Shown in pieces: positions 1 through 63,900 of a stretch of 64,000 nucleotides of DNA (position 1 is the stretch's first letter; the number at the start of each line of letters is the position of its first letter). The position numbers and the translations under genes are program-made. Under the pieces are notes generated by a model. That model had not been told where the DNA came from and did no database searches. It saw only the letters and a list, made by a program, of their open reading frames with translations. Origin of the DNA: Clostridia bacterium (GTDB lineage: Bacteria > Bacillota > Clostridia > JAAYHZ01); NCBI GenBank assembly GCA_050950825.1, contig JBMNIH010000009.1, positions 1-64,000 of the forward strand, in the 5' to 3' direction.

Positions 1-348
1 ACACAATACAACCCGCTGGTATCAAGCATTATCGTTGGCTCTTTATACTCATTGTGGACGGCTCCGTTGTACATAACCGGTCTGTTCGAAGAAGGACTCG
101 CGGGATTTTTATCGCAATTCATAATCAATATTCCGCTGGCCATTCCTTTTACTTGGCTGTATATGAAAACAAAAGGCAGCTTGTTTCATGTCGCGCTTTT
201 CAGTGCGTCCCTCAATACCTTCGGAATATTTATTCCGGTTACGGAACGTTCCTTTGTCATACTTATTCTCATATCGATCCTGTGTATCGTTGCCATTACA
301 ATGGAAAACCGCATGTGGATAAAAACGCGATGCATTGACGCCTTTTAA
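1..348 (+). CDS. CPBP (CAAX/Abi) family membrane protein, 5'-truncated by window edge; appears to lack the conserved histidines
   Basis: Frame 1 is open from position 1: TQYNPLVSSIIVGSLYSLWTAP...FTWLYMKTKGSLFHVALFSASLN, the CPBP C-terminal pattern; hydrophobic. Confidence 0.65.
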   Translation, partial: TQYNPLVSSIIVGSLYSLWTAPLYITGLFEEGLAGFLSQFIINIPLAIPFTWLYMKTKGSLFHVALFSASLNTFGIFIPVTERSFVILILISILCIVAITMENRMWIKTRCIDAF

Positions 349-367
349 GTCCTTCATCGATTAAAGA

Positions 368-1057
368 TTAGCGACTCATATCAATTCCTTTTCGTATGAG
401 TTCTTCGTTTATGGAACCGACGGCACCGGTGATGAGGTAGCCTTCTTCGTCTAAAAACAAGGACACGGGATAAGAAAAGATGCCTAAACCAATGGAAGCT
501 TCCAGATTCATATCATAAAACACGGGAAAGGTAAATTTGTTGTCGTTAATAAATTCGAGGGCTTTCTTTTTCGTTTCACGGCTGCCGTCCGTCAAATTGA
601 TCATAAGAAATTGAATTTCCTCTCCTAAATCTTCATAAACTTTTTGAAAGTCCGGCATTTCGTTTACACAAGGAGGACACCAAGTAGCCCAAAAATTGAT
701 GACGACGGGTTTACCGAAAAAGTCGGAGATCTCGTAGGAATTGCCATCGAAATCTTCAAAAGAAAAATCCGGAATCTTAAATTTCGTTACTTCCTCATCA
801 ACCTCTTCTTCGACGGTTTTCGACTCGGTAACCGATTCTTTCGTTGTTTCCGTTTCGTTTTTAGAAGTTTCCGAAATCTTCGAGGTTTCCGTTTCATTTT
901 TCGAAATCCGGGTATTTTCCTCGGTTCCTATAATTCCGGACGGATCGGACAATCGATCAATTTGCATATTTTTCGAAAGATTATCGTAAGCAAAATATGC
1001 AATGATCAAGGTTAATACCAGTGCCAGAATGTACGTGACGGTTTTCATTTTGCCCAT
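368..1057 (-). CDS. TlpA/ResA-like membrane-anchored thiol-disulfide oxidoreductase
   Basis: N-terminal TM helix, S/T/E-rich linker, VINFWATWCPPC thioredoxin motif; RBS GGAGG. Confidence 0.9.
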   Translation of the reverse strand: MGKMKTVTYILALVLTLIIAYFAYDNLSKNMQIDRLSDPSGIIGTEENTRISKNETETSKISETSKNETETTKESVTESKTVEEEVDEEVTKFKIPDFSFEDFDGNSYEISDFFGKPVVINFWATWCPPCVNEMPDFQKVYEDLGEEIQFLMINLTDGSRETKKKALEFINDNKFTFPVFYDMNLEASIGLGIFSYPVSLFLDEEGYLITGAVGSINEELIRKGIDMSR

Positions 1058-1071
1058 CTTTTTTTGTCCTC

Positions 1072-1739
1072 CTAATATGATAATAAGGATAAAAAGGATC
1101 CGAAAAGGCCTGTGGCCATCAAAAGTCCGACAACGATTAAAAATATTCCGCTAATTTTATTGATTATGCCGTAATGTTTCTTTATGAAATCAAATGCGGA
1201 TTTGAGTTTGGCGATTAGCAAAGCGGATAAAATGAAGGGGATTCCCAAACCTATGGAATACGCCAATAGCATCAATACGCCTTTTACGGACGCTGCCGCT
1301 TTGCGTTGCAAGCATGAGCGCCGAACCGAGAAAAGCTCCGACACAAGGCGTCCAGCTTACGGAAAACACCATACCGAACAAAACGGAACGAAAAAAAGTT
1401 GCTTCTTTACTTTCATGCCGGCTAAAGAAGGTACGGTTAAAAAAACCGATGCGAATAATCCCCAGAAAATGAAGCCCGAAGAAAATTACGATACCGCCGG
1501 TTATGATATTAACGATTACGGTACGCTCACGTAAAAAGCGTCCGACGGTGCCGGCGAAAAGCACCTAAGATTATAAAAACAAGGGTAAATCCTACAACAA
1601 ACCCCAATGCATTTTTTAATGAATTCTTCTCCTCTTCTTGTCCGCTTGCAAAATAGGACAGGTATACAGGCAGCAAAGGCAGCAAGCAAGGAGATATGAA
1701 TGTAATAATGCCTTCAAAAAATACGACAACGTATTCCAT
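1072..1739 (-). pseudogene. ccdA: CcdA (DsbD-family) protein split by two +1 frameshifts (pseudogene or sequencing error)
   Basis: Three consecutive fragments: EGIITFISPCLLPLLPVY, SVSWTPCVGAFLGSALM, LLAYSIGLGIPF. Frame breaks at the AAAA run at 1557-1560 and near 1282-1290. Confidence 0.8.
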
Positions 1740-1823
1740 GTCCCGTTCCTCTGTTTTTTGAAAAATTTTTACCATTATACCATGCAATTTTATAGGTGAT
1801 AAGTGACTTTGTTACAAAAAGCA

Positions 1824-1862
1824 AAAAAGCCTGACAATAACCGAGGGTCATTATTAGGCTTC
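1824..1862 (-). terminator. Probable intrinsic terminator of tlp
   Basis: AAGCCT...AGGCTT inverted repeat with an A-run on the left (U-tract on the minus strand). Confidence 0.5.
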
Positions 1863-1891
1863 TAAAAGATCATATTTTATACGAAGGAACG

Positions 1892-2128
1892 TTATTTATA
1901 ACCTTTTTCACGAGCAATGGATTCGTCGCGGATTTCCTTCCGCATTCCTTCGAGAGCGGATCTTCTTCTTTCGTTCTTTTCCAAAAGCTCCTTTATCGTT
2001 TTTTCGTTGTCGGTCTTCGCAATCATCTCTTCCGCCATTTCCATGTTTTGAATGGTTTTATCAATGTTGTATTGAATTTTTTCTACATTGTCTTTTCGAT
2101 CGTCCGGTTTTGGTTTGTTCTTATCCAT
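1892..2128 (-). CDS. tlp: Small spore protein Tlp
   Basis: KPKPDDRKDNVEKIQ...TIQNMEMAEE...KNERRRSALEGMRKEIRDE signature; RBS GAGGAGG. Confidence 0.9.
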   Translation of the reverse strand: MDKNKPKPDDRKDNVEKIQYNIDKTIQNMEMAEEMIAKTDNEKTIKELLEKNERRRSALEGMRKEIRDESIAREKGYK

Positions 2129-2161
2129 GTTTTCCTCCTCGCCATAGATAATGTATACGTT

Positions 2162-2190
2162 TATTGTTTACCGAAAGATTTAAAACATGC
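2162..2190 (-). promoter_or_regulatory. Putative forespore sigma-G promoter of tlp
   Basis: Minus strand GCATG-N17-AACAATA upstream of tlp. Confidence 0.45.
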
Positions 2191-2307
2191 AGTAAATAAT
2201 CGATTTTACTTGTGCTAAAAAATTGTCAGACTCTTTAAAAGAAAGAGGATTGATGTTATAATGAGGCAATTATGAGGCAAATGTTCACCAAGGCAGGAGG
2301 AGAAAAC

Positions 2308-3318
2308 TTGACAGAATACAATATTAACACGGAAATTAGCAGACCTCAAATGAACCTACGAGAAACAAACATTGCGATTAAATTTATCAAAGACAATTTT
2401 GAAAAAGTTTTGGCAAAAGAAATGAATTTAACTCGTGTATCCGCTCCCTTGTTTGTTCGTCCGGAAACAGGGTTGAACGACACGTTATCCGGTACGGAAA
2501 GACCGGTATCTTTTGATATCAAGAACGGCTCCTTTGTCGTGGAAATTGTTCATTCTTTGGCGAAGTGGAAAAGAATGGCCTTGAAACGGTACGGCTTCGA
2601 TTTTGGCGAGGGCTTGTATACCGATATGAATGCCATTCGGAGAGATGAAGTCTTAGACAACTTGCATTCCGTATATGTAGACCAATGGGATTGGGAAGTC
2701 GTTATTCACAAAGACCAACGTAACGTAGAAACGTTAAAATCCATCGTAAGGCGTTTGTATAAAGTGTTTAAAGAAGTGGAAAATAAGGTGACGGATCGAT
2801 ATCCTTACTTGATGCGCCTTCTGCCGGATGATATTTATTTTATTGATACGCAAGAGCTGGAAGACCGCTATCCTCATCTTACTGCGAAAGAAAGAGAAAA
2901 TGCCATTGCGAAGGAATACAAAGCCGTTTTCCTTATGAAAATCGGCGGCAAATTAAAATCGGGTAATAAACACGATGATCGTGCACCGGACTACGACGAC
3001 TGGAGCTTAAACGGCGATATTATTTTCTGGTATCCCGTACTCAATTGTGCATTTGAGGTATCCTCCATGGGAATCCGTGTAGACGAAGATTCTTTGGTAC
3101 GCCAACTGGAAGAGGCCGGATGCTTGGATCGTCTGAATATGCAGTTCCATAAGGATATTCTCAACAAGAATCTGCCATATACCGTAGGAGGCGGCATCGG
3201 CCAGTCGCGTATATGCATGTTTTATCTGAACAAAGCACATATAGGGGAGGTTCAGGCCTCCGTATGGACGGAAGACATTGAAAAAAAGTGTGCGGCTGAA
3301 AATATTCAGCTTTTGTAA
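2308..3318 (+). CDS. asnA: Aspartate--ammonia ligase
   Basis: VHSLAKWKR, GLYTDMNAIRRDE, VDQWDWE, RAPDYDDW, GGGIGQSR motifs; TTG start after GGAGG. Confidence 0.95.
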   Translation: MTEYNINTEISRPQMNLRETNIAIKFIKDNFEKVLAKEMNLTRVSAPLFVRPETGLNDTLSGTERPVSFDIKNGSFVVEIVHSLAKWKRMALKRYGFDFGEGLYTDMNAIRRDEVLDNLHSVYVDQWDWEVVIHKDQRNVETLKSIVRRLYKVFKEVENKVTDRYPYLMRLLPDDIYFIDTQELEDRYPHLTAKERENAIAKEYKAVFLMKIGGKLKSGNKHDDRAPDYDDWSLNGDIIFWYPVLNCAFEVSSMGIRVDEDSLVRQLEEAGCLDRLNMQFHKDILNKNLPYTVGGGIGQSRICMFYLNKAHIGEVQASVWTEDIEKKCAAENIQLL

Positions 3319-3338
3319 CGGGTATTCAATGGGTAAAA

Positions 3339-3707
3339 ATGAAGTTCATTGGTAATTTGATTTGGATTGTATGCGGCGGTTTCGTGGGAAGTATTTTGTG
3401 GTTTCTTGCCGGGATTCTTTTAGCGGTTACCGTTATCGGAATCCCTTTTGCTCTTCAATGCTTTAAAATTGCCGGCTTTGTTCTATATCCTTTCGGAAGA
3501 GATATCCTGTTCGGGAGTTTCGGTGCATTGGGGCTCCTAGGCAACATCTTTTGGATTCCGATTTTCGGTATGGAGCTGTGCGCGGCGCATTTTCTCATGG
3601 GATTACTCCTTTGCTTGACCGTCGTAGGCGTTCCCTTCGGAAAACAGCACTTTAAGTTAGCCAAGATTTCTTTAATGCCCTTCGGAACCCGGATCTATTC
3701 CGTATAA
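3339..3707 (+). CDS. YccF domain membrane protein
   Basis: Two repeats of GNxxW...TVIGIPF...FKIA...PFG. Confidence 0.9.
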   Translation: MKFIGNLIWIVCGGFVGSILWFLAGILLAVTVIGIPFALQCFKIAGFVLYPFGRDILFGSFGALGLLGNIFWIPIFGMELCAAHFLMGLLLCLTVVGVPFGKQHFKLAKISLMPFGTRIYSV

Positions 3708-3708
3708 C

Positions 3709-3745
3709 AAAAAAAAGGACGTGTCATCTACGTCCTTTTTCTTTT
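3709..3745. terminator. Bidirectional intrinsic terminator
   Basis: AAAAAGGACGT-loop-ACGTCCTTTTT between convergent genes. Confidence 0.75.
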
Positions 3746-3756
3746 GGGTTTTATGT

Positions 3757-4197
3757 TTAAAGATTTTTTTCCATGGATACATGAGGGATTCCCTCTTCGT
3801 AAAACACATCGGATGTTTGCACGTAGCCCAGCTTTCGGTAAAAGGGAAGAGCATGGGTCTGGGCATGCAGCATGGTTTTACGATATCCTTTTTCGAGGGC
3901 GATTTCCTCTAAGGCTTTCATGACCGTTTTACCTACACCGTGCATCCGTGCCTCCTTCAGCACGCAAACCCGTTCGCACTTCATGACTCCGTCCTTCGGA
4001 CGAATTCGACCGGTACCCACCGGTTTTCCGTTAAGACGGACGAGAACGTGAACGGATTCCGTCTCGTATTCGTCGAATTCGTTTTCGGCAGGTACCATTT
4101 GTTCATCCACAAACACCGTTTTACGGATGGTGCGGGAGGCCGAAAAGTCTTCTTCCTTCTGTATACGTATCACTTCAAAGATGCTTTTGGAATTCAT
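3757..4197 (-). CDS. GNAT N-acetyltransferase (ElaA/YjcF-like)
   Basis: IRKTVFVDEQ, ERVCVLKEARMHGVG, LHAQ..ALPFYRKLGY, EEGIPH. Confidence 0.9.
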   Translation of the reverse strand: MNSKSIFEVIRIQKEEDFSASRTIRKTVFVDEQMVPAENEFDEYETESVHVLVRLNGKPVGTGRIRPKDGVMKCERVCVLKEARMHGVGKTVMKALEEIALEKGYRKTMLHAQTHALPFYRKLGYVQTSDVFYEEGIPHVSMEKNL

Positions 4198-41129: not shown

Positions 41130-41205
<76 letters not shown>

Positions 41206-41210
41206 TATGC

Positions 41211-41295
41211 GGAGGAATTCCCGAGCGGCCAAAGGGGGCAGACTGTAAATCTGTTGGCAGTGCCTTCGGTGGTTCGAATCCACCTTCCTCCACCA
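41211..41295 (+). tRNA. tRNA-Tyr (GTA)
   Basis: GGAGGAA...GCAGA-CTGTAAA-TCTGT, variable arm, GGTTCGAATCC...CCA. Confidence 0.97.
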
Positions 41296-41328: not shown

Positions 41329-42484
41329 GCATAATACGAGAAATTTTTCGAGATATTATCGATCTTAGTATTTCGTATCTTTGGCAAAGGGGCGATATTT
41401 GTCCAAAACCGCTTTGAACCAATCCATGTTACGGACTTCATCGTAAAATTTGTTTGTGTCAATGTAGTCCGGCACCCGCTTGATTTCGTTGCCTTCGTAA
41501 CCCGAATATACTGTTGATTTATCAAATACATGGTCTTTGACCAAAATGGAAACGTGTACGGTTTTCGTCGGCAGCTCGTCGTACATTTTACCGTGGAAGA
41601 GCCCCAAGTCCAAGTATTTCGCCGCATTTACATAATCCTTTAGCATAATGTATCGATTGGCGATATAGATGTACAGCTCGCATAAATGATAGTGGTTAAA
41701 TCCGTAGTCGGATTGATCATAAATCAAACGAAGCAAGTCAACGGCTTTTTCGAAAATATTTATTTGCTCATCCGGTGGTGATGATGTGTACAAAGCGATG
41801 TTTCGAATTTTTATAACCAACATATAAGTTAATTGATTGATGTTGCTTCGTACGACTTCGAACCATTTATCGCTTCCTCTGTCGTAAATTTCCTCAAGTT
41901 CTTCCTCTTGAGAATAACCATAGGTGGGAAAACGATTGTTGTATTCGAGGGCCTTCTCCGTATCTCCTTTATCACTGTATAGACTGCTTAGCATAGACAA
42001 GGCGGAATAATGAACGGAATCCAAAGGACATTCGTCCAAGATTCGATTGCAAAGATAAAACAATTCGTCCTCATTGGCAAGAGGAACATAGTTGCCGTTT
42101 TCATCGAAATTATTAGGCGCATTGTAATACAAGCCGAAAATATACTTTTCCATGATTCGGTAATCGTTCGGATATTCGTAATAGGCTTTTCGGATAAAGT
42201 CAAATGATTTATTTTCTTTACCTAAGTTCTTCAAGCGCGTGTATTCGGACAAGATTTCGTCGATTTTTTCTTGTTTTTTCGACAAATCAACGCCTAACAA
42301 TTCGTCCGTCGTCACATTGAAAAAATTCGCCAAAACGGGAAGCATGGAAATGTCGGGTAAAGCCGTGAACGGCGCATTTCATGCGCCGCCGTTGACAGTC
42401 CCGCCCGTCTTTGCTAAAGGGTAATCAAGGCGGGAAAGCCCTAAAATGGCTTCACACCTATTTCAATAATTGGAGGAGATAAAA

Positions 42485-43351
42485 ATGAGATCAGAAAAGG
42501 AAGTTTATGATATTGTTTTGAATTTTGCAAAAACAGACAAACGCATTCGCATGGTTACTTTGGAAGGATCTAGAACAAATACAAATATTCCGCCTGATGA
42601 TTTTCAGGATTTTGATATTACTTTTTTTGTTACGGATATGGACAGCTTCACAAGTGATGATAAATGGCTAGATATATTTGGTGAAAGGTTGATTCTGCAA
42701 AAGCCGGAAGATATGGAATTATTTCCAGCTGTAGAAAAGGGATTTTCATATTTAATGCTGTTTACTGATGATGTTAAGATAGATTTAACTTTGCTGCCGC
42801 TGGAACTGATAGACGAGTATTTTACATGGGATAAACTGGTAAAGTTACTGTTGGATAAAGACAACCGTATCGTAAAGCCGCCAATACCAACGGATATAGA
42901 CTACCACTTGCAGAAGCCTACTCAAAGAATGTTTGACGATTGCTGTAATGAATTTTGGAATACTACAACATATGTAGTAAAGGGCTTATGCCGCAAAGAA
43001 ATTCTTTTTGCTATTGACCATATGAATGATATAGTACGAAAAGAATTGCTTCGCATGATTTCCTGGCTGATTGGTATCAAACAGGGATTTCATTTCAGTT
43101 TGGGAAAAAACTATAAATTTATGAAGCAATATGTCCCAGAGGAATTGTGGGAACGACTTATGTCCACTTATAATATGGATTCCTATCCCCATATGTGGGA
43201 ATCCTTTGAACAATGTATGGCATTGTTCCGGGAGGTTTCGTCAGAAGTGGCATGCCAGTTGGATTACCAGTATCCACTATATGATGAAAAAATCAGTAAT
43301 TATGTGATTCGGCAAAAGAAAAAATATGGCATTGAAGATGATAACAAATAA
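42485..43351 (+). CDS. aadE: Aminoglycoside 6-adenylyltransferase ANT(6) (streptomycin resistance)
   Basis: MRSEKE...LEGSRTN...DDFQDFDI...KIDLTL...LLDKD...CCNEFW...GKNYKF, 288 aa; RBS GGAGG. From memory it resembles the mobile aadE/ant(6)-Ia allele; not database-checked. Confidence 0.93.
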   Translation: MRSEKEVYDIVLNFAKTDKRIRMVTLEGSRTNTNIPPDDFQDFDITFFVTDMDSFTSDDKWLDIFGERLILQKPEDMELFPAVEKGFSYLMLFTDDVKIDLTLLPLELIDEYFTWDKLVKLLLDKDNRIVKPPIPTDIDYHLQKPTQRMFDDCCNEFWNTTTYVVKGLCRKEILFAIDHMNDIVRKELLRMISWLIGIKQGFHFSLGKNYKFMKQYVPEELWERLMSTYNMDSYPHMWESFEQCMALFREVSSEVACQLDYQYPLYDEKISNYVIRQKKKYGIEDDNK

Positions 43352-43469
43352 AATTTTTTCAATCGAAAAAATTTATTTTGATTATTCAATTTTGAAAAAC
43401 TGAATACCTCAAAATCAGAAAGAGCGCGGCCAAGCACTTTGAGGGATTGGCCGCCTTGTCCACCCATCC

Positions 43470-43546
43470 AGCGGGACGGCGGGCGGCGGTCAAGGCCGGG
43501 TGTAAACCCGTTCATTTCAGCCTTGACGGTTGCCCGCTGTCCTGCT
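43470..43546. repeat. Long GC-rich imperfect inverted repeat (GTCAAGGC/GCCTTGAC core), possible single-strand origin or promoter
   Basis: AGCGGGACGGCGGGCGGC-GGTCAAGGC...GCCTTGAC-GGTTGCCCGCTGTCCTGCT. Confidence 0.7.
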
Positions 43547-43764
43547 ACTTTTCCGGGAGTGTGGCCACAACTTCGGGACACTTTGTCCACAAGTCGGAGC
43601 GTAGGACGAGGAACGGGGGCTTTCATATACGCCCTGTCTGCTGATGAAACCAGACCTGCGCTTGCGGCTCCACGCCACGCAAGCACAGCCCTGTTTTCCT
43701 GCCGCTTCAAATGCCCTTGCCCTCCCCGGCGGCAACGGCATTTTCACGGCAACGCCGACAGAGC

Positions 43765-43802
43765 GTATAACACACTACACTTTGCTTCGCAAAGTCGTGT
43801 GC
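43765..43802 (-). other. MOBV (pMV158/RSA-type) origin of transfer
   Basis: Minus strand GCACACGACTTTGC-GAA-GCAAAGTGTAGTGTG^TTATAC: inverted repeat plus the conserved TAGTGTG/TTA nic motif; predicted nick between 43771 and 43770. Confidence 0.8.
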
Positions 43803-44120
43803 CAAATGGGGGCGTTGCCCCCTTTGGAAACCCCCACAAGAAAAGGCGGTACGCTACCCCTCCACGGGGCGCATAGCCGGTTTCCCATTTCGAGACGGCT
43901 TGAAAGGATACGCCCAATCTTTCGGCAAGCTGCTCCTGCGTTAAATCCGTCTTTTTTCGCAGTTCTTTTATTTTCTTTCCCAAACGATCCATAATTCTTT
44001 CTCCTTATCGTTGATTTTGCTTGCAAGCTACTTCCATTATAATCCTTGATAAAGTTTTATCCATATAACCGTATTTGAATTCTATTCAACCGCGGTTCGA
44101 ATAATGGTATTTGCCGATAT

Positions 44121-44153
44121 AAAAAACAGGCGGCCTTTGAAGACCGCCTGTTA
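44121..44153 (-). terminator. Terminator after glycerate kinase
   Basis: AAAAAACAGGCGG...CCGCCTGTT. Confidence 0.75.
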
Positions 44154-44172
44154 TGCTTAAATTCTTTTAGCT

Positions 44173-45312
44173 TTATTTACCTATAGTATTTTTTATGAAT
44201 CTTATCAAATTGTCCATTGTCAAATAAAGGTCCTTTTGGGCTCGCAATTTTGCTTGCGGGAAATCAACGGCAACGCGGTTGATGCTGAATACGGCCGATA
44301 CCCCCGTTTCGTATACCGGGTCAATATCGTCACCGATATCGCCGACAATGGCGATTACGGGAACATGAGCGAGTTTTGCACGCTTGGCAACACCGATCAC
44401 AACTTTCCCTCGCAGCGTTTGCGAATCGATTTTTCCTTCTCCCGTGAACACAAAATCCGCATCTTTTACAAGGCTATCGAATTGAACGGTATCCAACACC
44501 GTTTCAATCCCCATTTGAAGCCTTGAGCCGAAGAATACATGCATACCGTAGCCCATGCCGCCTGCCGCTCCTGCTCCGGGCATGCTCTCGGATTCGATTC
44601 CTATATCCCTTTTTACGATTTCGGATACATGACGCAACCCTTTGTCCAATTCTTCGACCATGGAGGGGTCCGCTCCTTTTTGAGGTCCGAAAATATGGGC
44701 AGCGCCGTTCGTACCGAATAAGGGATTGTTGATATCACACATAGTCGTAATGGATACATCTTTAAGTAGGGGATTTAATGTTTTTGCATCGATAGCGGCA
44801 ATGTCTTTTAGTGTTCCGCCCGTGGGAACGAATGACTTTCGATTCCGGTCGAAAAATACAACACCACAGGCGGCTGCCGCACCGGTTCCGGCATCATTGG
44901 TAGCGCTTCCGCCGAGACCTACAATGACATGCTTCGCTCCCTTTTTTACGGCATCTAAAATCAATTGTCCTACGCCGTAGGTGGTTGTCAAGGAGGGATT
45001 TTTTTTGTCACCCACCAAGGGTAGACCTGCGCAAGCCGCCATTTCAATGACGGCGGTTTTTCCATCGTCCAGCATTCCGTAAAAGGCATCCATATCTTCG
45101 AAGTAAGGACCTTTGACCGTGGTATATACTTTCGTTCCTCCTGCCGCTTGTAAAAAAGCATCCACACTTCCTTCTCCGCCGTCCGCCACGGGGATTTTTT
45201 GAATTTCAGCGGAAGGATAATACTTTTTGACGGCTTCTTCCATGATGTCACATATTAAGGATGAACTCATCGTCCCTTTAAAAGAATCGGGAATAAGGAT
45301 TACTTTTCTCAT
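44173..45312 (-). CDS. glxK: Glycerate kinase (GlxK/GarK family)
   Basis: PDSFKGTMSS, PVADGGEG, GLGGSATNDAG, PGAGAAGGMG, TGEGKIDSQT. Confidence 0.93.
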   Translation of the reverse strand: MRKVILIPDSFKGTMSSSLICDIMEEAVKKYYPSAEIQKIPVADGGEGSVDAFLQAAGGTKVYTTVKGPYFEDMDAFYGMLDDGKTAVIEMAACAGLPLVGDKKNPSLTTTYGVGQLILDAVKKGAKHVIVGLGGSATNDAGTGAAAACGVVFFDRNRKSFVPTGGTLKDIAAIDAKTLNPLLKDVSITTMCDINNPLFGTNGAAHIFGPQKGADPSMVEELDKGLRHVSEIVKRDIGIESESMPGAGAAGGMGYGMHVFFGSRLQMGIETVLDTVQFDSLVKDADFVFTGEGKIDSQTLRGKVVIGVAKRAKLAHVPVIAIVGDIGDDIDPVYETGVSAVFSINRVAVDFPQAKLRAQKDLYLTMDNLIRFIKNTIGK

Positions 45313-56537: not shown

Positions 56538-57581
56538 ATGCTCGACATCATAAACTACGGCTATGATCCGACACTCGAACCGATTCCGGAAGGAATTGAA
56601 GTTGCACGGGTAGCGGCGGTATATAAGGAACGTTACGAACTCATATGCCGTTACGGTTTGATTTACGGACGTCTTAAATCAAGCGTATATTACGATAAAA
56701 ACGAGGAATTTCCCACAACCGGGGATTTTGTTTGGATACAATACAATCCTTCCGGAGACAGTGTCATCATCAAGACATTGGAAAGAAAATCCTTCTTTTC
56801 GCGCTTGGACCCGATACCCGGAAAAGGGATGCAGGCCGTAGCGGCGAATTTCGATTACGTGTTCATACTCACATCATTGAACCGAGATTTTAATTTGAAA
56901 CGATTGGAACGCTATCTGGCCCTTTCCTGGCAAAGCGGCGGCATTCCCGTCATTTTACTTACCAAATCCGATTTGATTGAGGACCCTTCCGAATACGTGA
57001 AACAGGTTGAAAAGACGGCAAAAAACGTGTTGGTCCATACCATCAGCGTAAAAACCGGTTACGGGCTTCAAGACCTTTCCGAATACTTAAAGCCGCGTAA
57101 AACCGTCGTACTTTTAGGTTCCTCGGGGGTCGGAAAATCCAGCCTCATAAATGCATTGGCCGGCAGTGAAATCATGAAAGTAAATGAAATTCGGGAAGAC
57201 GATGCCCGAGGACGGCATACCACGACAAAACGCCAATTGATTCCGCTTTCATGCGGTGCCATGATCATCGACACCCCGGGCATGCGTTCCGTGGGTATGC
57301 AGGATACGGAGCAAGGATTAGGGGAAGCTTTTTCCGATGTGGAAGAATACTTTGGCAAGTGCCGATTCAAAGACTGTAAGCATTCAAAGGAGCCGGGTTG
57401 TGCAATAAAGGCGGCGTTACAAAACGGGGAGCTTTCCTTGGAACGATGGAACAGTTATCTGCAATTAAAAAGAGAATCGGAATATTCCGAGGATCCTTTT
57501 GAATACTTGAAGAAAAAGAAAGAAAAGTTTAAGACCATTGCCAAGATCAACAAGGAAAAGTACAAGGGAAGAATCGAGTAA
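56538..57581 (+). CDS. rsgA: Ribosome small subunit-dependent GTPase A (circularly permuted GTPase)
   Basis: TKSDL, GSSGVGKSSLIN, GRHTTT, IDTPGMR, CRFKDCKH..EPGC. Confidence 0.93.
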   Translation: MLDIINYGYDPTLEPIPEGIEVARVAAVYKERYELICRYGLIYGRLKSSVYYDKNEEFPTTGDFVWIQYNPSGDSVIIKTLERKSFFSRLDPIPGKGMQAVAANFDYVFILTSLNRDFNLKRLERYLALSWQSGGIPVILLTKSDLIEDPSEYVKQVEKTAKNVLVHTISVKTGYGLQDLSEYLKPRKTVVLLGSSGVGKSSLINALAGSEIMKVNEIREDDARGRHTTTKRQLIPLSCGAMIIDTPGMRSVGMQDTEQGLGEAFSDVEEYFGKCRFKDCKHSKEPGCAIKAALQNGELSLERWNSYLQLKRESEYSEDPFEYLKKKKEKFKTIAKINKEKYKGRIE

Positions 57582-57611
57582 CGGTAAATTCTTAATTTAA
57601 CGAATGCGAAT

Positions 57612-57642
57612 AAGCATGTACCTTTACGGTATGTGCTTTTTT
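57612..57642 (+). terminator. Terminator after rsgA
   Basis: AAGCATGTACC-TTTAC-GGTATGTGCTTTTTT. Confidence 0.7.
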
Positions 57643-57754
57643 CATGTAAATAAAAAATATCGCGAATTAAATACGGTGAAAAAGTCGAAACGTTATGATA
57701 CAATCACGATACAAATGGTGAACCAAATTCATTTGAAAAAAAGGAGAAGCCGTT

Positions 57755-60700
57755 ATGAAACGTTTTGAACGTGACACCGTGAAAACTTCTCGGACCTTTT
57801 ACACCGATGAAAAATTGCGCAATGCAAAGAAAAATATCGAGAAGTTCGAATGGGCAAGAAAAGAAAAAGAGAAGGCTGTAAAAATGGCCGAGGAATTTTT
57901 GGCATACGGAGTTCCCAACCTGCTGACGTATGTGACACAGCAAAACATTCCTCGAAGCTACGGGGTCAATCAAATGAAAGGCTGCCCGGTTTGCGGCAAA
58001 GGCATCGATAAGTACGGTAATTATCCTTATCTTGCCGACATTTTCAACAGGCCTTTCAAACTGCAGTGTCCGAATTGCAAATCCCTTTTCCCGTCCAACG
58101 ATTTCGATTCCTACTACAAAAGCGGACTGGACGAAAACGGAAGATTTCATTATGAAAAAGCCGATCCGAAATATTTGGTAAACGAACTGTATCCCGATAA
58201 GCCCTCCGACTGGTGTGTTGACAACGGATTCGGATGGGTGGATCCGGAAGGATGCAAGACAAAATCCTATTCCATGGTATACGACAAAAACGGATATCAT
58301 CAAAAAGATACCACCACCGGAGACAATCGTTATACCTTTATCGCCTATTACAACCACTGGTTCATATGGATGACCTGGCAAGGCGTCGGTATGGTTACAT
58401 GTGCCATATCCGCGTTACGAGATGCGTACCTATACACGGATGACCCGAAATACGCCAAAGCGGGGCTGATGCTTTTAAACCGTGTTGCGGACTTTTACAA
58501 AGAATACGATGCCTGCGTCTATAAATGGGAAGACAATTTCCGCCACTCGGGAGGCGCATGGGGCAAAATCGTAGGCTCTATCTGGGAAGAAAGCGTTGTG
58601 AACCAATTCATTAAAGCATACGATGCCTTTTTCCCCGCCATTACGGAGGAAGTCGTTCAAGAAATCAATGCACATCCCTTCTACAAAAACAATCCCGTAT
58701 CTCCGAAAAACGCCGAAGACATTAAATTGAATATCGAGAACAATATTCTCTACCAAATTCTACCGGAAGTAAAGAACCACAGAATACGCGGCAATTTCGG
58801 TATGCATCAGGAAAGCATCGCTTTGGCCGCTTTGGTTCTTCAAAACGATGAATACTTCAAATACAGCATCGATACCATCATGGAGACCACGGACGGCCAG
58901 CCGTGGGGTGTGGGAAACATTGAAAATGTATTGATCAACGAGATTGACCATGACGGATGCGGAAACGAAACCGCCGCCGGGTACAACGGAATTTGGATCA
59001 ACGGTATGAGTGCCATTGCCGACATATTGAAGGGGACTTCGAAGGATCTGTACAACAATAAAAAGTTTTTAAAGATGCACGACCTCGAAATCCCGTATAT
59101 CGTTGCGGATCGATATACTTTAAACATCGGAGATTCCGGTATTGCCGGAAATCCACACACCGTCGTATACAAAGACCCTCAAATTGCCCTGTTCCTTCAC
59201 AACGGCAACGTACAAAGCGCACAGCTTCTGGATTTGGATGCGAAGGTTCGAAAACAAAAGGGGGAAAACGGCTCCATTGTTCAGAACATGCTTATCGATT
59301 GTGAAAAAGTAGAAGAAGACATCGTCAAAACCATTGAAAAACACGGCCCCTTCCGGTCCGTCAGCGAAAACTACAGCGGATACGGCATCGCCAAATACGA
59401 AATTCGAAATGAAGCCCAAGAGCCGAAAAGCGTATGGATGTATTACGGGCGAAACACCGGCCACGGACATAAAGACACATTGATGTTGGGCTTTTTCGGG
59501 TACGGCGTATTTCTAAACCCGGACCACGGTTACCCCTGCTTTGCAGACGGCAATTTCGAACGCAGCCGCTGGACCGTAAATACCCTATCTCACGATACGG
59601 TTTCGGTAGACGAAGGCCCCGGAAAGAACCACGTCGTCGGCATTCCTCATCACTTCGATGCAAGAGAAAAAATCGGCGTTATGGACACGGAAGCGCCTCT
59701 TCTGTATGAGCAAACCTCATGCTATCGAAGAACGTCGGTTACGGTGAACTTGGACGGCGCCGCATACACCGCCGACTTTTTCAGAGTGGCGGGAGGAAAA
59801 GACCATCGGTACGTATTCCACGGTGCGGAAGGTGAGGCTCAAACGACGGGCTTGAACCCGGTCGCCCAAATGCGTGGAACCTATGCCGGAGAAGACGTTA
59901 AGTTTGCATCGGAAGAATACGATCGTAAATCTCGCAGCGGCTTTAACTATTTGTACGACGTAAAAAGAGATTCTTCGGTGAAAGGCTCTTTTACGGTGGA
60001 TTGGAAAGTAAAAGACACCTTCAAAGTATGGAATAAGGAAAGAGACGTCCACATTGCCGTTACGGTTTTGGATCCGCCGTACGAAGCCGTCCTTGCAAAA
60101 GGCCAACCGCCGCAAAACAAGCCCGGCAACCCGAAGGAATATACCTATTTGATCGTTCATAACAAGGGCGAAAATTTGGAAAGCCAATTTGCAACCGTCA
60201 TCGAATCCTATGAAAACGATAGCGCCGTATTGAATGCGGAAGCCTTGCCTATCGCTTGCGAAGACGGAAGCGATCCCGGGTATCTTGCCAAAGCGGTGAA
60301 GGTTACGATGAAAAACGGTCGCATCGATTATATTTTAAACGCCATTGATCAAAGAACCTACGTTGTCGACAACGGAAAGATGAAGTTCAAGGGATTTCTT
60401 GCGGTTATCAGCGAAAAAGACGGCCGTGTTTGCTACAAGTATGCGAATGATCTTTCCTACTTGAAATTCAAGGATCAGGAGCTTGTCAAGGGGGATCTGT
60501 TCGTAACGGGAATCGTTATTGATTTTACCAAAGAAAGCAGTTTGGATAACAGAATCATCGTGAAGCTTGATACCGACGTATGTCCTTCCAAGCTTACTCA
60601 TGCATACACGGATATCGAAACCGATAAGATCCGAAACGGATGCTACAAAATCCTCTCCGCTCAAAAGAACCGAGACGGTTTGTACGAATTGAATATCGGA

Positions 60701-60808
60701 GACATTACATTGATTCGCGCTTTGGTTAACGAGGGCCAAGAAGAAAAATACGTATACAATATAGCCGAAGGCGCCAAAATACGTATACCGTTGGCCAAGG
60801 AAGAATAA
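57755..60808 (+). CDS. Heparinase II/III-like polysaccharide lyase, paralog A (1017 aa)
   Basis: Helical N-half (AYLYTDDPKYAKAG), NE..GY, GHGHKD, D.GYP, W..NTLSHDTV motifs; N-terminal CPVC/CPNC; no signal peptide. Confidence 0.7.
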   Translation: MKRFERDTVKTSRTFYTDEKLRNAKKNIEKFEWARKEKEKAVKMAEEFLAYGVPNLLTYVTQQNIPRSYGVNQMKGCPVCGKGIDKYGNYPYLADIFNRPFKLQCPNCKSLFPSNDFDSYYKSGLDENGRFHYEKADPKYLVNELYPDKPSDWCVDNGFGWVDPEGCKTKSYSMVYDKNGYHQKDTTTGDNRYTFIAYYNHWFIWMTWQGVGMVTCAISALRDAYLYTDDPKYAKAGLMLLNRVADFYKEYDACVYKWEDNFRHSGGAWGKIVGSIWEESVVNQFIKAYDAFFPAITEEVVQEINAHPFYKNNPVSPKNAEDIKLNIENNILYQILPEVKNHRIRGNFGMHQESIALAALVLQNDEYFKYSIDTIMETTDGQPWGVGNIENVLINEIDHDGCGNETAAGYNGIWINGMSAIADILKGTSKDLYNNKKFLKMHDLEIPYIVADRYTLNIGDSGIAGNPHTVVYKDPQIALFLHNGNVQSAQLLDLDAKVRKQKGENGSIVQNMLIDCEKVEEDIVKTIEKHGPFRSVSENYSGYGIAKYEIRNEAQEPKSVWMYYGRNTGHGHKDTLMLGFFGYGVFLNPDHGYPCFADGNFERSRWTVNTLSHDTVSVDEGPGKNHVVGIPHHFDAREKIGVMDTEAPLLYEQTSCYRRTSVTVNLDGAAYTADFFRVAGGKDHRYVFHGAEGEAQTTGLNPVAQMRGTYAGEDVKFASEEYDRKSRSGFNYLYDVKRDSSVKGSFTVDWKVKDTFKVWNKERDVHIAVTVLDPPYEAVLAKGQPPQNKPGNPKEYTYLIVHNKGENLESQFATVIESYENDSAVLNAEALPIACEDGSDPGYLAKAVKVTMKNGRIDYILNAIDQRTYVVDNGKMKFKGFLAVISEKDGRVCYKYANDLSYLKFKDQELVKGDLFVTGIVIDFTKESSLDNRIIVKLDTDVCPSKLTHAYTDIETDKIRNGCYKILSAQKNRDGLYELNIGDITLIRALVNEGQEEKYVYNIAEGAKIRIPLAKEE

Positions 60809-60811
60809 CAA

Positions 60812-60872
60812 AAAGAAAAAGGCTGCTGCATTCCAAAGGAAAACCTCTTATGAATGCAGAGCCTTTTTCTTT
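60812..60872 (+). terminator. Terminator-like hairpin between the two lyase paralogs
   Basis: AAAGAAAAAGGCT-G-CTGCATTC...GAATGCAG-AGCCTTTTTCTTT. Confidence 0.75.
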
Positions 60873-60902
60873 ATACCAAAACCTTGAAAAGGAGTAGCCG
60901 AC

Positions 60903-63900
60903 ATGAAATTCTTTGAACACGATACCGTGAAGACTTCCCGAACCTTTTATACCGACGAAAAAATACGAAATGCAAAGAAAAACATCGAAAGATTCGATCG
61001 GGCAAGAAAAGAAAAAGAAAGAGTCGTGCAATTAGCCGAGGAATATTTGGCTTACGGAATAAACAATCTTTTGACTTACGTGACGCAGCAGAATCTTCCC
61101 CGAAGCTATAGCGTAAACGAAATGAAGGGTTGTCCGGTCTGCGGGAAAGATATCGATCGATTCGGTAATTACCCTTACATTGCCGATATTTTCCAAAAGC
61201 CTTTCAAACTTCAATGTCCCAATTGCCAATCGGTTTTTCCTTCCAACGATTTTGATTCTTACTACAAAAGCGGGTTGGACGAAAACGGAAGATTTCATTA
61301 TGAAAAAGCCGATCCGAAATACTTGGTAAACGAATTGTATCCGGACAAGCCTTCCGATTGGTGTACCGACAACGGATTCGGATGGGTGGATCCGGAAGGC
61401 TGCAAAACAAAATCCTATTCCTATGTCTATGACAAAGAAAAGGGCATGGTATTCAAGGAGACCACCGTAGGGGACAATCGCTATACCTTCATCGCCTATT
61501 ACAACCACTGGTTCATCTGGATGACCTGGCAAGACAAGACGATGGTTACGGGCGCCATATCCGCGTTACGAGATGCGTACCTATACACGGATGACCCGAA
61601 ATACGCCAAAGCGGGGCTGATGCTTTTAAACCGGGTTGCGGACTTTTACAAAGAATTCGATGCTTGTATCTACAAATGGGAAGACAACTTTCGTCATTCG
61701 GGAGGCGCATGGGGTAAAATCGTAGGCTCCATATGGGAAGAAAGTGTTGTGAATCAATTTGCAAAGGCCTACGACGCCTTTTTCCCGGCCATTACGGAAG
61801 ATACGGTCCGAGAAATCAACGCCCATCCCTTCTACAAAAGCAATCCCCAAGCCCCGAATACGACGGAGGATATTAAACGAAACATAGAAAACAATATCCT
61901 TTATCAAATCCTTCCGGAAGTGAAAAATCACAGAATCCGAGGCAACTTCGGCATGCATCAGGAAAGCATTGCCTTAGCGGCTTTGGTTCTTCAAAACGAA
62001 GAATACTTTCGGCACAGCATCGATGCCATTATGTCCTTCTCGGACGGCAGTTCTAGGGGCATAGGAAACATTGAAAAGGTGCTGATCGATGAAATCGACC
62101 ATGACGGATGCGGTAACGAGACCTCCATCGGCTACAACGGCATATGGCTCAATACTTTAAGTACCATTGCCGATATTTTAAGAGGAACTCCTTCGGATCT
62201 TTATAAGAACATCAAATTTTTAAAAATGCATAACCTGGAGATTCCTTCTATTATTGCCGATCGATATACTTTGAATATCGGCGATTCGGGTCATGCCGGA
62301 AATCCCGAGACCGTTGTGAATATAAATCCCCATATCGCTTTGCTTCAAAATTATGCCGACGTAACAAGCGCCCGGCTTTTGGATTTAGCACAAAGGGTAA
62401 AGAAAGAAAAAGGAGAAGAGGGTGCCTTTTATCAAAATATGTTTGTCGATTGGGAAAAGACGAATCGAAATATTGCAAAAATCGTTGAAAAACACGGTCC
62501 TTTTCGATCCGTCAGTGAAAACTACAGCGGTTACGGTCTTGCCAAATACGAGATACGGAATGAAGCCCAAGAACCGAGAAGCGTATGGATGTATTACGGT
62601 CGAAATACCGGCCATGCTCACAAAGACACTTTGATGCTGGGCTTTTTCGGATACGGCGTATTTTTAAATCCGGATCACGGTTATCCCTGTTATACCGACG
62701 GCAACTTTGAGCTTCGCAACTGGACCGGCAATACCCTATCTCACGATACGGTTCTTGTAGGCGAAGAACCGGGGAATAACCATGTGGTCGGTATTCCTCA
62801 TCATTATGATGCAAAGGAATCCGTCGGCGTTATGGATATCGAAGCTCCTCTTTTATACGAGCAAACATCCTGCTACCGAAGAACGGCGATCACGGTGAAC
62901 AGGGACGGTATCGTATATACCGTCGACTTATTCCGAGTAGCGGGAGGAAACGATCATCGGTACGTATTCCACGGTGCGGAAGGAGAGGCGCAAGCTACGG
63001 GCTTGAACCCGGTCGCTCAAAAGCGGGGAACCTATGCCGGGGAAGAGGTGGAATTCGCTTCGGAAGAGTACGATCGAAAATCTCGCAGCGGCTTTAACTA
63101 TTTGTACGATATCAAAAGAGACCCTTCGGTGAAAGGCTCCTTTACGGTGGATTGGAAAATTAAAGACACTTTTAAGGTATGGGAAAAGGATAGAGACGTT
63201 CATATTGCAATCACGGTTTTGGACCCTCCCGACGAAGCGGTTCTTGCAAAAGGCCAACCGCCGCAAAACAAGCCCGGCAATCCGAAGGAATATACCTATT
63301 TGATCCTTCATAACAAAGGGGAGGACATCGAAAGCCAATTTGCAGCCTTAATCGAATCCTATGAAAACGATAGCGCCGTATTGAATGCGGAAGCCTTGCC
63401 TATCGCTTGCGAAGACGGAAGCGATGCCGGGTATCTTGCAAAAGCAGTGAAGGTGACGATGAAAAACGGACGCATCGATTACATTCTAAACGCCATTGAT
63501 CAAAGGACTTACGTTGTCGGAAACGGAGAATTCGAATTCAAGGGCTTTCTTGCAATCATCAGCGAAAAGGACGGCCGTGTTTGCTACAAGTACGCAAACG
63601 ATCTTTCCTACTTGAAATTCATGGATCAGGAGCTTGTAACGGAGGATCTTTTCGTAACGGGAACCGTTATTGATTTTACCAAAGAAAGCAGTTTGGACAA
63701 CACAATCGTCGTGAAGCTTGATACCGACGTATGTCCTTCCAAGCTTTTCGGTGCTTACACGGATATCGAAACCGACAAGATCCGAAACGGATGCTATAAA
63801 GTCCTCTCCGCCGAGAAGAATAAAGACGGGTTGTACGAATTGAATATCGGAGACATTACGTTGATTCGTGCCGCGACGGGGGATGTCGGCCAATACGAAT

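Follow-up and report, generated by a model that had tools for sequence, protein, structure and literature searches.

A probable end-trimmed fragment of an aadE integrative mobilizable element in a split XRE regulator gene

Tn4451 and Tn4453 are mobilisable elements whose large serine recombinase, TnpX, works with a 2-bp core, GA, and whose target is not known to be a conserved protein motif. A closer counterpart of the locus considered here comes from C. difficile, where an integrative mobilizable element (IME) that carries aadE and encodes both a serine recombinase and a relaxase of the MobV type is integrated in a helix-turn-helix (HTH) regulator gene and where an integrative and conjugative element (ICE) has in turn integrated into the recombinase gene of that IME; the available text of that report finds no discernible core motif at the IME integration sites (PMC12271512). 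The term CIME is applied, in the available text of a further source, to a cis-mobilizable remnant of an ICE or IME in which both att sites are kept (PMC12084326). Our subject is a 1,509-bp insert with an aadE gene that splits a regulator gene of the XRE family in a Clostridia bacterium (GTDB lineage JAAYHZ01); it occupies positions 42364..43872 of the window, by which we mean the whole analysed stretch of 64,000 nucleotides (positions 1 to 64,000 of contig JBMNIH010000009.1, assembly GCA_050950825.1). We consider it probable, at roughly 0.7, that this insert is a stranded, trimmed and enzyme-less fragment of a larger aadE IME, lying at the hot spot of that element's family. A preliminary description of the same DNA had favoured a self-contained minimal unit, possibly of an undescribed class. 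The first idea fails the test that the description had itself proposed, since the endpoints were found nowhere else and fall in the interior of a larger element, and the second is forestalled, as far as the available text goes, by the C. difficile aadE IME, which has a serine recombinase and MobV and sits in an HTH regulator gene (PMC12271512).

The split XRE gene and the endpoints of its insert

The insert interrupts a minus-strand XRE/HTH gene with a tetratricopeptide-like (TPR-like) tail directly after W-E-T-G-Y. The N-terminal half of this gene (43873..43992, minus strand, 40 codons) matches Pfam HTH_3 with 46.6 bits and ends in ...S-K-W-E-T-G-Y, the open reading frame (ORF) from 43992 to 43873 being translated as MDRLGKKIKELRKKTDLTQEQLAERLGVSFQAVSKWETGY. 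The frame picks up again at 42363 with ALPDISMLPVLANFF... and ends at 41365, so that the C-terminal half (41365..42363, minus strand, 332 codons) starts A-L-P-D-I-S-M-L and runs into the TPR-like tail; it is 60% identical to the ortholog in the congeneric genome G001 (open frame 381 aa). That ortholog, 366 aa in length, is intact (...SKWETNAAYPDISMFPVLANFF...) with an unchanged codon count across the junction, and two paralogs of the gene are likewise uninterrupted (WERGECYPDISML and WERGEGYPDITLL). Because the codon spacing of ortholog and paralogs matches across the break, the proposal that excision of 42364-43872 restores the gene without loss of a host base is correct. The preliminary description's observation of a GC dinucleotide at both junctions, 42362-63 and 43871-72, also stands. 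The boundaries read CGTGAAC... on the left and ...GGGGCGC on the right, with TGAACGGCGC at the left end of the insert and CCACGGGGCGC at its right end, and the host junction falls between the fifth and sixth codons of the W-E-T-G-Y-A run, with the host letters ATAG on the right. The XRE-TPR regulator is inactivated by the insert.

The endpoints of the window copy are unique and internal to a longer conserved unit. What the insert has in common with other copies is the stretch 42366-43875, which is 99.4% identical (9 mismatches in 1,510) to the copies at loci L070, L104 and L156 and occurs at 98-99% identity in 3 of 18 matching plasmid records (Lactobacillus amylovorus, Subdoligranulum variabile and Pusillibacter faecalis). 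A complete copy was found in one of 400 sampled genomes of the class (G194), and the source genome itself (3.55 Mb, 11 contigs, 97% completeness) has a single copy of the insert and no second left module (Lm). At all 13 other readable left ends the match begins at 42366 and is preceded by a conserved 35 nt, ATAGCAAAGCC...GGTCAAGA. On the right, the same conserved stretch follows 43875 at five of six right ends, and all ten other complete copies continue past the window's right end, L162 by only 16 nt; earlier breaks are limited to truncated copies, namely five Campylobacter plasmid copies that break off at ~43630 and L132, where the locus ends.

Both boundaries of the window copy fall in conserved secondary structure. 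On the left, a long Lm hairpin has its 3' arm in the window, and its 5' arm is made up of the outer 28 nt left of the unit, part of the canonical 35 nt. The right boundary falls within the 3' arm of a right-module (Rm) hairpin whose arms are 24 nt long. The window lacks one arm of each of these long terminal hairpins, both of which are intact in L104 (28-nt arms at 5783-5810/5840-5867; 24-nt arms at 7287-7310/7317-7340, 88% complementary), and the missing arms co-vary with the retained ones even in copies that are only 81-85% identical. The two letters before TGAACGG are CG in the window and GA in all donors. When metagenomes were scanned for non-canonical left junctions, none of the five matches was of the window type (three were unrelated GC-rich coding DNA and two diverged canonical junctions); among public sequencing runs, the best had 0.74 of the words sampled from the window, and the window's own arrangement was in none of them. 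The recurrence of these boundaries at other loci, proposed earlier as a check, was thus found neither on the left, nor at the complete right ends, nor in the metagenomes.

The parent element and its crossover site

A 7,451-bp block, shared at 99-100% identity by all five genomes searched, has the copies nearest to the window's at its right end. This block is the IME, with the gene order large serine recombinase, MobV relaxase, RepA_N, Cys-rich VLP, XRE, AAA/zeta-like kinase and then Lm-aadE-Rm. In L104 its recombinase, of 525 aa, has Resolvase, Recombinase, Zn_ribbon_recom and DUF4368 domains by Pfam, and the other Pfam matches there are Mob_Pre (172.7 bits), RepA_N, Cys_rich_VLP, HTH_3 and AAA_18/Zeta_toxin. 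The ends of the IME, defined in L193, are 19-nt inverted repeats identical at 17/19 positions, as expected for the attP half-sites of a serine recombinase. Two other ways of delimiting the element were considered and rejected. A 1,631-bp form is not a discrete element and is simply the IME right end in L104, L070 and L156; in L004 genes for RepA_N and Cys-rich VLP proteins lie immediately upstream of it. Nor are the conserved 20 nt left of Lm (...TTCCCATTTATCGGGGAG) the XRE C-terminal halves of independent targets, because the same left flank occurs with three different right-flank genes (L070, L104 and L156) and must therefore be a remnant inside the IME. In genome G409 the IME is itself split by ~28.8 kb at IME position ~1480, inside the recombinase gene (G409:C4:27245-28726 and 57505-63561).

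Of this element the window holds only homology to the cargo module: serine recombinase, relaxase, 19-nt inverted ends and a junction at GG are all missing, and the unit stops 35 nt short of the start of Lm and ~90 nt short of the right end, so that neither IME end is in the window. The insert encodes no enzyme of its own, as expected of the non-autonomous unit that had been described. Searches of the window (C9:1-64000) gave no match to PF07508, to PF00589 or to a large serine recombinase, in agreement with the earlier statement that no transposase, integrase or relaxase is seen in it (DDE transposases were not searched), and the Mob_Pre profile had no match in the whole genome. It had been suggested that recombinases and MobV be sought elsewhere in the genome; the only DUF4368-type recombinase relatives there, at 26-54% identity, are broken. 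These are G000:C4:310788-312196 and G000:C3:194850-195921, one of them split over two frames and the other with stop codons. No intact cognate recombinase is present in the genome.

The crossover can be read from complete insertions. All three that are readable on both sides are bounded by the GG of a glycine codon (CC on the other strand): (i) in G410, ...ISRQAVSKWESG (...SKWESG) is joined to ATNPDINNIISLSEIYGVSTDYILLGK; (ii) in G409, ...RQTISKWEQG is joined to LSVPDSDMLISISEVLETPVSTLLGE; and (iii) in G406 (L193, G406:C8:72300-81000), where the gene hit is not an HTH gene and has GWEPG, ...TGWEPG is joined to KTYTEAL. In each pair, one host flank breaks off after codon x and the other begins at the third base of the glycine codon; joining the inverted ends puts the GG at their dyad centre. 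Such a geometry is that of a large serine recombinase with a 2-bp crossover, and the IME's own serine recombinase is presumably its integrase. The target word, TGG-GAR-NNN-GG, encodes W-E-x-G and for that reason persists in HTH_3 (XRE) genes, and the G406 insertion in a non-HTH gene argues that recognition is at the DNA word and not at the gene family.

A census of right flanks covered 33 loci with both ends. All nine right ends of types T2 and T3 adjoin W-E-x-G, with a clear HTH N-terminus in eight of them, and none of the 24 T1-type ends does; three further right flanks lie in HTH genes (L018, L003 and L004), and in L026 the target DNA word is present in another frame. For T2-type ends the flanks alone fix no 2-bp core. 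The earlier suggestion that HTH genes are the target is borne out, in that relatives sit there at one codon position, W-E-x-G. In the window's XRE gene the target word TGG GAA ACC GG is present, and by analogy the IME crossover is expected at the GG of the W-E-T-G glycine codon, 43877..43878 (minus strand), 4 nt from the junction at 43872/43873. The preliminary description had pointed to a serine recombinase with a 2-bp core; the family's enzyme is indeed a large serine recombinase, and its crossover is GG, 4 nt away, rather than the GC seen at the junctions. L162 shows a second kind of shortened right end: ~1,550 nt past its left end the right part stops at the end of a hairpin 3' arm (...CTTTTCTTGT) and joins the CC core, after which comes an HTH N-terminus, ...SKWENG.

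The same XRE gene proved to be the target in contigs of X1, X2 and X3, bioreactor-metagenome runs of three studies; the contigs are 6.9, 4.9 and 9.0 kb long. In canonical copies the distance from the unit to the CC core is exactly 90 letters in four of four T3 copies and 83+7 letters in T2-type copies. In the X1-X3 contigs the canonical outer-left letters lead into the unit, which shows 14 differences from the window's; after another 90 letters comes window 43877-44300 (1 difference), the host sequence resuming exactly at the GG of 43877-43878. There are no ambiguous letters at this joint, so the letter before CCGG there is not the window's G, and the joint letters together with the 90-letter spacing indicate that X1-X3 carry a canonical junction at the glycine GG of this very gene. 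Since their element belongs to another lineage (12/14 variant letters are common to L141 and L167, 0/14 to the IME copies nearest the window's unit), the XRE gene has been hit at least twice, independently. Uncovered parts of 41900-42365 in X2-X4 are uninformative.

Origin of the window copy

In the account that we favour, a serine recombinase would integrate the full IME at the GG of a W-E-x-G glycine codon, mostly in XRE genes, and the inner 1,509 bp of IME cargo would have been captured or reshaped once, non-canonically, at the family's attB hot spot. GC and ATA microhomologies may have aided the capture, as may the likeness of the host arms to the donor stretches that flank the unit (6/8 and 8/16 nt). 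With both recombinase-binding ends, one arm per terminal hairpin and all enzymes gone, the copy would now be immobile. Whether a one-off non-canonical capture or reshaping step produced the window copy is, in our judgement, about evenly balanced. The junction lies within the few bases between the crossover and the next leucine codon, which in a 3.5-Mb genome is not chance and argues for capture at the family's hot spot. We tried to derive the window junctions from a canonical insertion by one deletion per side, without success: on the left, two deletions or filler letters are required, and a single-deletion derivation of the right side works only under a junction model that X1-X3 contradict. 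The host ATAG tells the same story, since it lies right of the insert and an IME at the GG core would put it left, so that one deletion per side cannot yield the window.

Several observations weigh against capture of an IME fragment. The host junction is clean, with no base lost and ATAG on the right, and trimming in situ would need several steps. A clean insertion 4 nt off the crossover with GC on both sides is what would be expected of a 2-bp-core recombinase acting on other sites. The joined ends of the insert form a 14-bp near-palindrome (6/7 pairs) with its centre 3 nt from the junction, which chance would give in ~0.2% of cases per register and ~1% over seven registers. Where the copies are canonical, the DNA that immediately borders the unit is similar to the host arms (6/8 nt on the left, 8/16 on the right), which hints at an older, real insertion site. 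Left of Lm, X1-X3 differ from the window over at least 244 to 4,037 letters, and that side is unreadable; the L002 right flank is without a TGGGA word; and for the role of the IME's recombinase as its integrase we rely on inference from sequence.

The same cleanness, with GC at both junctions, intact ortholog spacing, the near-palindrome and unit flanks that look in canonical copies like an old XRE target, speaks for a complete minimal cassette with its own ends that moved as a circle through a GC crossover, driven by a serine recombinase in trans. We hold this to be distinctly unlikely, given that its endpoints have no second example (13/13 left ends are canonical and 10/10 complete copies run past the right end), that 0/5 metagenome matches are of the window type and the best run has 0.74 of the words, that the endpoints cut conserved hairpins with co-varying arms, that the palindrome centre is off the junction, and that, with CG against GA before TGAACGG, no donor circle with such a joint is derivable. 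A variant that we find remoter still would make the inner 1,509 bp the original mobile unit with a palindromic joint, the XRE-like site being fossilised as the outer stretches of ~35 and ~90 nt that all other copies have and the window copy representing a recent second jump, into a genuine XRE gene, by an unknown recombinase in trans; if true, the Lm and Rm hairpins would serve a Firmicute system for shuffling cargo as its cassette recombination sites, with the W-E-x-G codons of repressor genes as the target. Decay in place, in which hairpin-stimulated deletions would later have shortened both ends of a canonical IME or small element integrated in the XRE gene, is unlikely as well, even if it is the alternative that we take most seriously. 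Long palindromes are deletion hot spots, X1-X3 show that the same gene receives canonical insertions, and L162 has a right part shortened to a hairpin-arm end with its core junction kept. The host ATAG, however, is on the wrong side for a GG-core insertion, the left junction requires at least two deletions or filler letters, and the X1-X3 element, sharing 12/14 variant letters with L141/L167 and 0/14 with the nearest copies, is of another lineage and hence not the ancestor.

Hairpin-directed single-strand recombination, of the kind known for integron attC sites, IS200/IS605 or a relaxase, would use the Lm and Rm hairpins as sites. It is suggested by boundaries that both lie in or beside hairpins, by the cargo slot between Lm and Rm, and by arrays in which Lm precedes different cargo genes (ant(9)-Lm-aadE in L002; Lm-AAA ATPase-aph in L007). 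We nevertheless think it very unlikely: the window has no tyrosine recombinase and the genome no MobV, the integron core-site pattern is absent at the boundaries, and the complete relatives are accounted for by a serine recombinase with a 2-bp core. That assembly wrongly joined a resistance contig into the XRE gene can hardly be credited. No direct point favours it, both junctions keep the ortholog's frame to the base, the genome consists of 11 contigs at 97% completeness, and independent contigs show the same gene as target. The stranded IME fragment therefore remains the reading that we prefer.

Contents of the insert, its cargo slot and known systems

Taken as a whole, the insert (42364..43872, plus strand) is an end-trimmed piece of an Lm-aadE-Rm cargo module, all parts of which lie on the plus strand. 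The inner part of Lm, 42366..42479, comprises a small hairpin (42370-42377/42381-42388) together with one arm, the 3' one, of the long Lm hairpin; the partner 5' arm belongs to the canonical outer 35 nt and is absent from the window. Lm may also supply the promoter of aadE. This part is followed at 42485..43351 by aadE, for an ANT(6) aminoglycoside 6-adenylyltransferase of 288 aa; residues 2-277 of the 288 match NCBIfam NF033084 with 456.3 bits against a curated cut-off of 420, which places the protein in ANT(6), and AMRFinder labels the gene in the matching plasmid records AadE at 100%. Streptomycin resistance is predicted to be conferred by the insert. The ~490 bp after aadE are non-coding and make up Rm (43385..43872), GC-rich (58-59% over 43400-43872) and with inverted repeats at 43470-43546, 43646-43698 and 43709-43743; two ORFs within 43400-43872 had no family match in profile searches, which leaves aadE as the sole recognisable gene, as had been stated. 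The last part of Rm is a remnant of its terminal hairpin (43836..43872), consisting of the 5' arm (43836-43859), the loop and the first 7 nt of the 3' arm, with the remainder of that arm and the recombinase-binding end absent from the window.

A candidate origin of transfer (oriT) lies in Rm at 43765..43833, where a 70-nt motif has the hairpin ACTTTGC-TTC-GCAAAGT (43779-43801) followed by CGTGTG. We take this motif to resemble MobV-type nick regions, and an oriT function is plausible on its letters. Matches of ~80% to it (query 1402-1470) occur in at least eight other genomes of the class, away from any aadE. A second dispersed motif, a 39-nt hairpin at 43489-43527 (GTCAAGGC...GCCTTGAC), is found in many genomes of the class without aadE nearby, and the scattered genomic matches of both motifs are 78-88% identical. 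An Rfam scan of 42200-44100 gave chance matches below threshold only. Just past the 3' end of the split XRE gene, genes for tRNA-Phe(GAA) and tRNA-Tyr(GTA) occupy 41130-41295, and the long ORFs listed over this stretch are artefacts.

The backbone formed by Lm and Rm is widespread. A 27-letter word that crosses the canonical left boundary was found in the genomes of at least 120 species, mostly of Clostridia, with some Negativicutes and Erysipelotrichia, a Collinsella and a Spirochaetia metagenome-assembled genome, and three kinds of DNA follow that boundary: cargo-less Lm-Rm backbones of 0.5-0.7 kb, the aadE form, and a large class in which Lm is succeeded by genes for a sigma-70 region 4 protein, MobC, a MobA/VirD2 relaxase, a Cys-rich VLP protein, RepA_N and a DnaC-like protein. 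In large-class copies L049 and L179-L182 (G401 and G402), Lm positions 1-109 precede the mobility genes, and the four copies read in G401/G402 have a large serine recombinase of 536-539 aa 5.7-8.2 kb past the left end. Beyond this recombinase come a small membrane ORF and further large ORFs, and the cargo slot of L181 holds an Erm-like methyltransferase, which at 193 bits falls short of the cut-off (212). Rm directly follows Lm, with no aadE, in L019, L021, L020 and L024, and L005 is also a cargo-less backbone; a contig of run X4 skips window 42468-43409 and has 19 other letters in its place. These backbones and the X4 skip indicate that aadE fills a defined cargo slot from ~42479 to 43385.

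Other resistance genes occur in or near this backbone. Directly left of a 702-bp Lm-Rm backbone lies a 1,591-bp block (L065 5304-6894) with a gene for a 406-aa Mef(A)-like protein of the major facilitator superfamily (542 bits, where the Mef(A) cut-off is 675); at 99.8-99.9% identity the block occurs in 12 loci (L065, L091, L093, L101, L106, L112, L124, L126, L138, L148, L157 and L161), whose right flanks are all different. Lm is also part of resistance arrays, ant(9)-Lm-aadE on the L. amylovorus plasmid of L002 and Lm-AAA ATPase-aph-...-aad(6)-sat4 on Campylobacter plasmids (L006 and L007). A plasmid-database search with the large Lm-bearing element returned four short matches only, and a literature search on small Lm-Rm elements as such returned nothing specific. 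With aadE, Erm-like and Mef(A)-like genes, and ant(9) and aph in arrays, found in or beside it, the Lm-Rm backbone represents a common cargo slot in gut and bioreactor Firmicutes.

The window copy illustrates that a resistance gene can stay fixed in a chromosome after its vehicle is lost, and that a 1.5-kb piece without a mobility gene will be missed by tools based on integrases or relaxases. For a widespread resistance IME the relatives define a precise target, the glycine-codon GG in W-E-x-G of HTH_3, a recombination site that is held constant by protein conservation.

Likened by description, the IME family and Tn4451/Tn4453 both have a large serine recombinase, a 2-bp crossover and resistance cargo, and both are mobilisable, non-conjugative elements of Clostridia; Tn4451/Tn4453 differ in their GA core and in having no known protein-motif target, and the window itself is without a recombinase. 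To an integron cassette the insert is similar in its single resistance gene with a structured non-coding 3' part, and its relatives in their Lm-gene arrays, but there is no IntI-type integrase (no PF00589 match in the window) and no boundary of the type GTTRRRY, the integron core-site consensus. The copy resembles a CIME, in the available text on such remnants, as an enzyme-less derivative of a mobilizable element at that element's target; having lost both element arms, it falls outside the definition of a CIME (PMC12084326) or of a derivative like a miniature inverted-repeat transposable element. It is a stranded fragment of a known kind of element and not a new class, and biologically nothing in it is categorically new. 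Such novelty as there may be is modest, and concerns where precisely the crossover falls in the W-E-x-G word and how widely the Lm-Rm cargo backbone occurs. The C. difficile aadE IME, compared by description and as far as the available text extends, shares with the present family its cargo, both enzyme families and the kind of target gene, and its ICE-in-recombinase nesting matches the ~28.8-kb split of the G409 IME (PMC12271512). The window, in contrast, has 1.5 kb only, with neither enzymes nor ends, and where the available text of that report gives no core motif, the paired junctions described here place the crossover at the GG of TGG-GAR-NNN-GG (PMC12271512).

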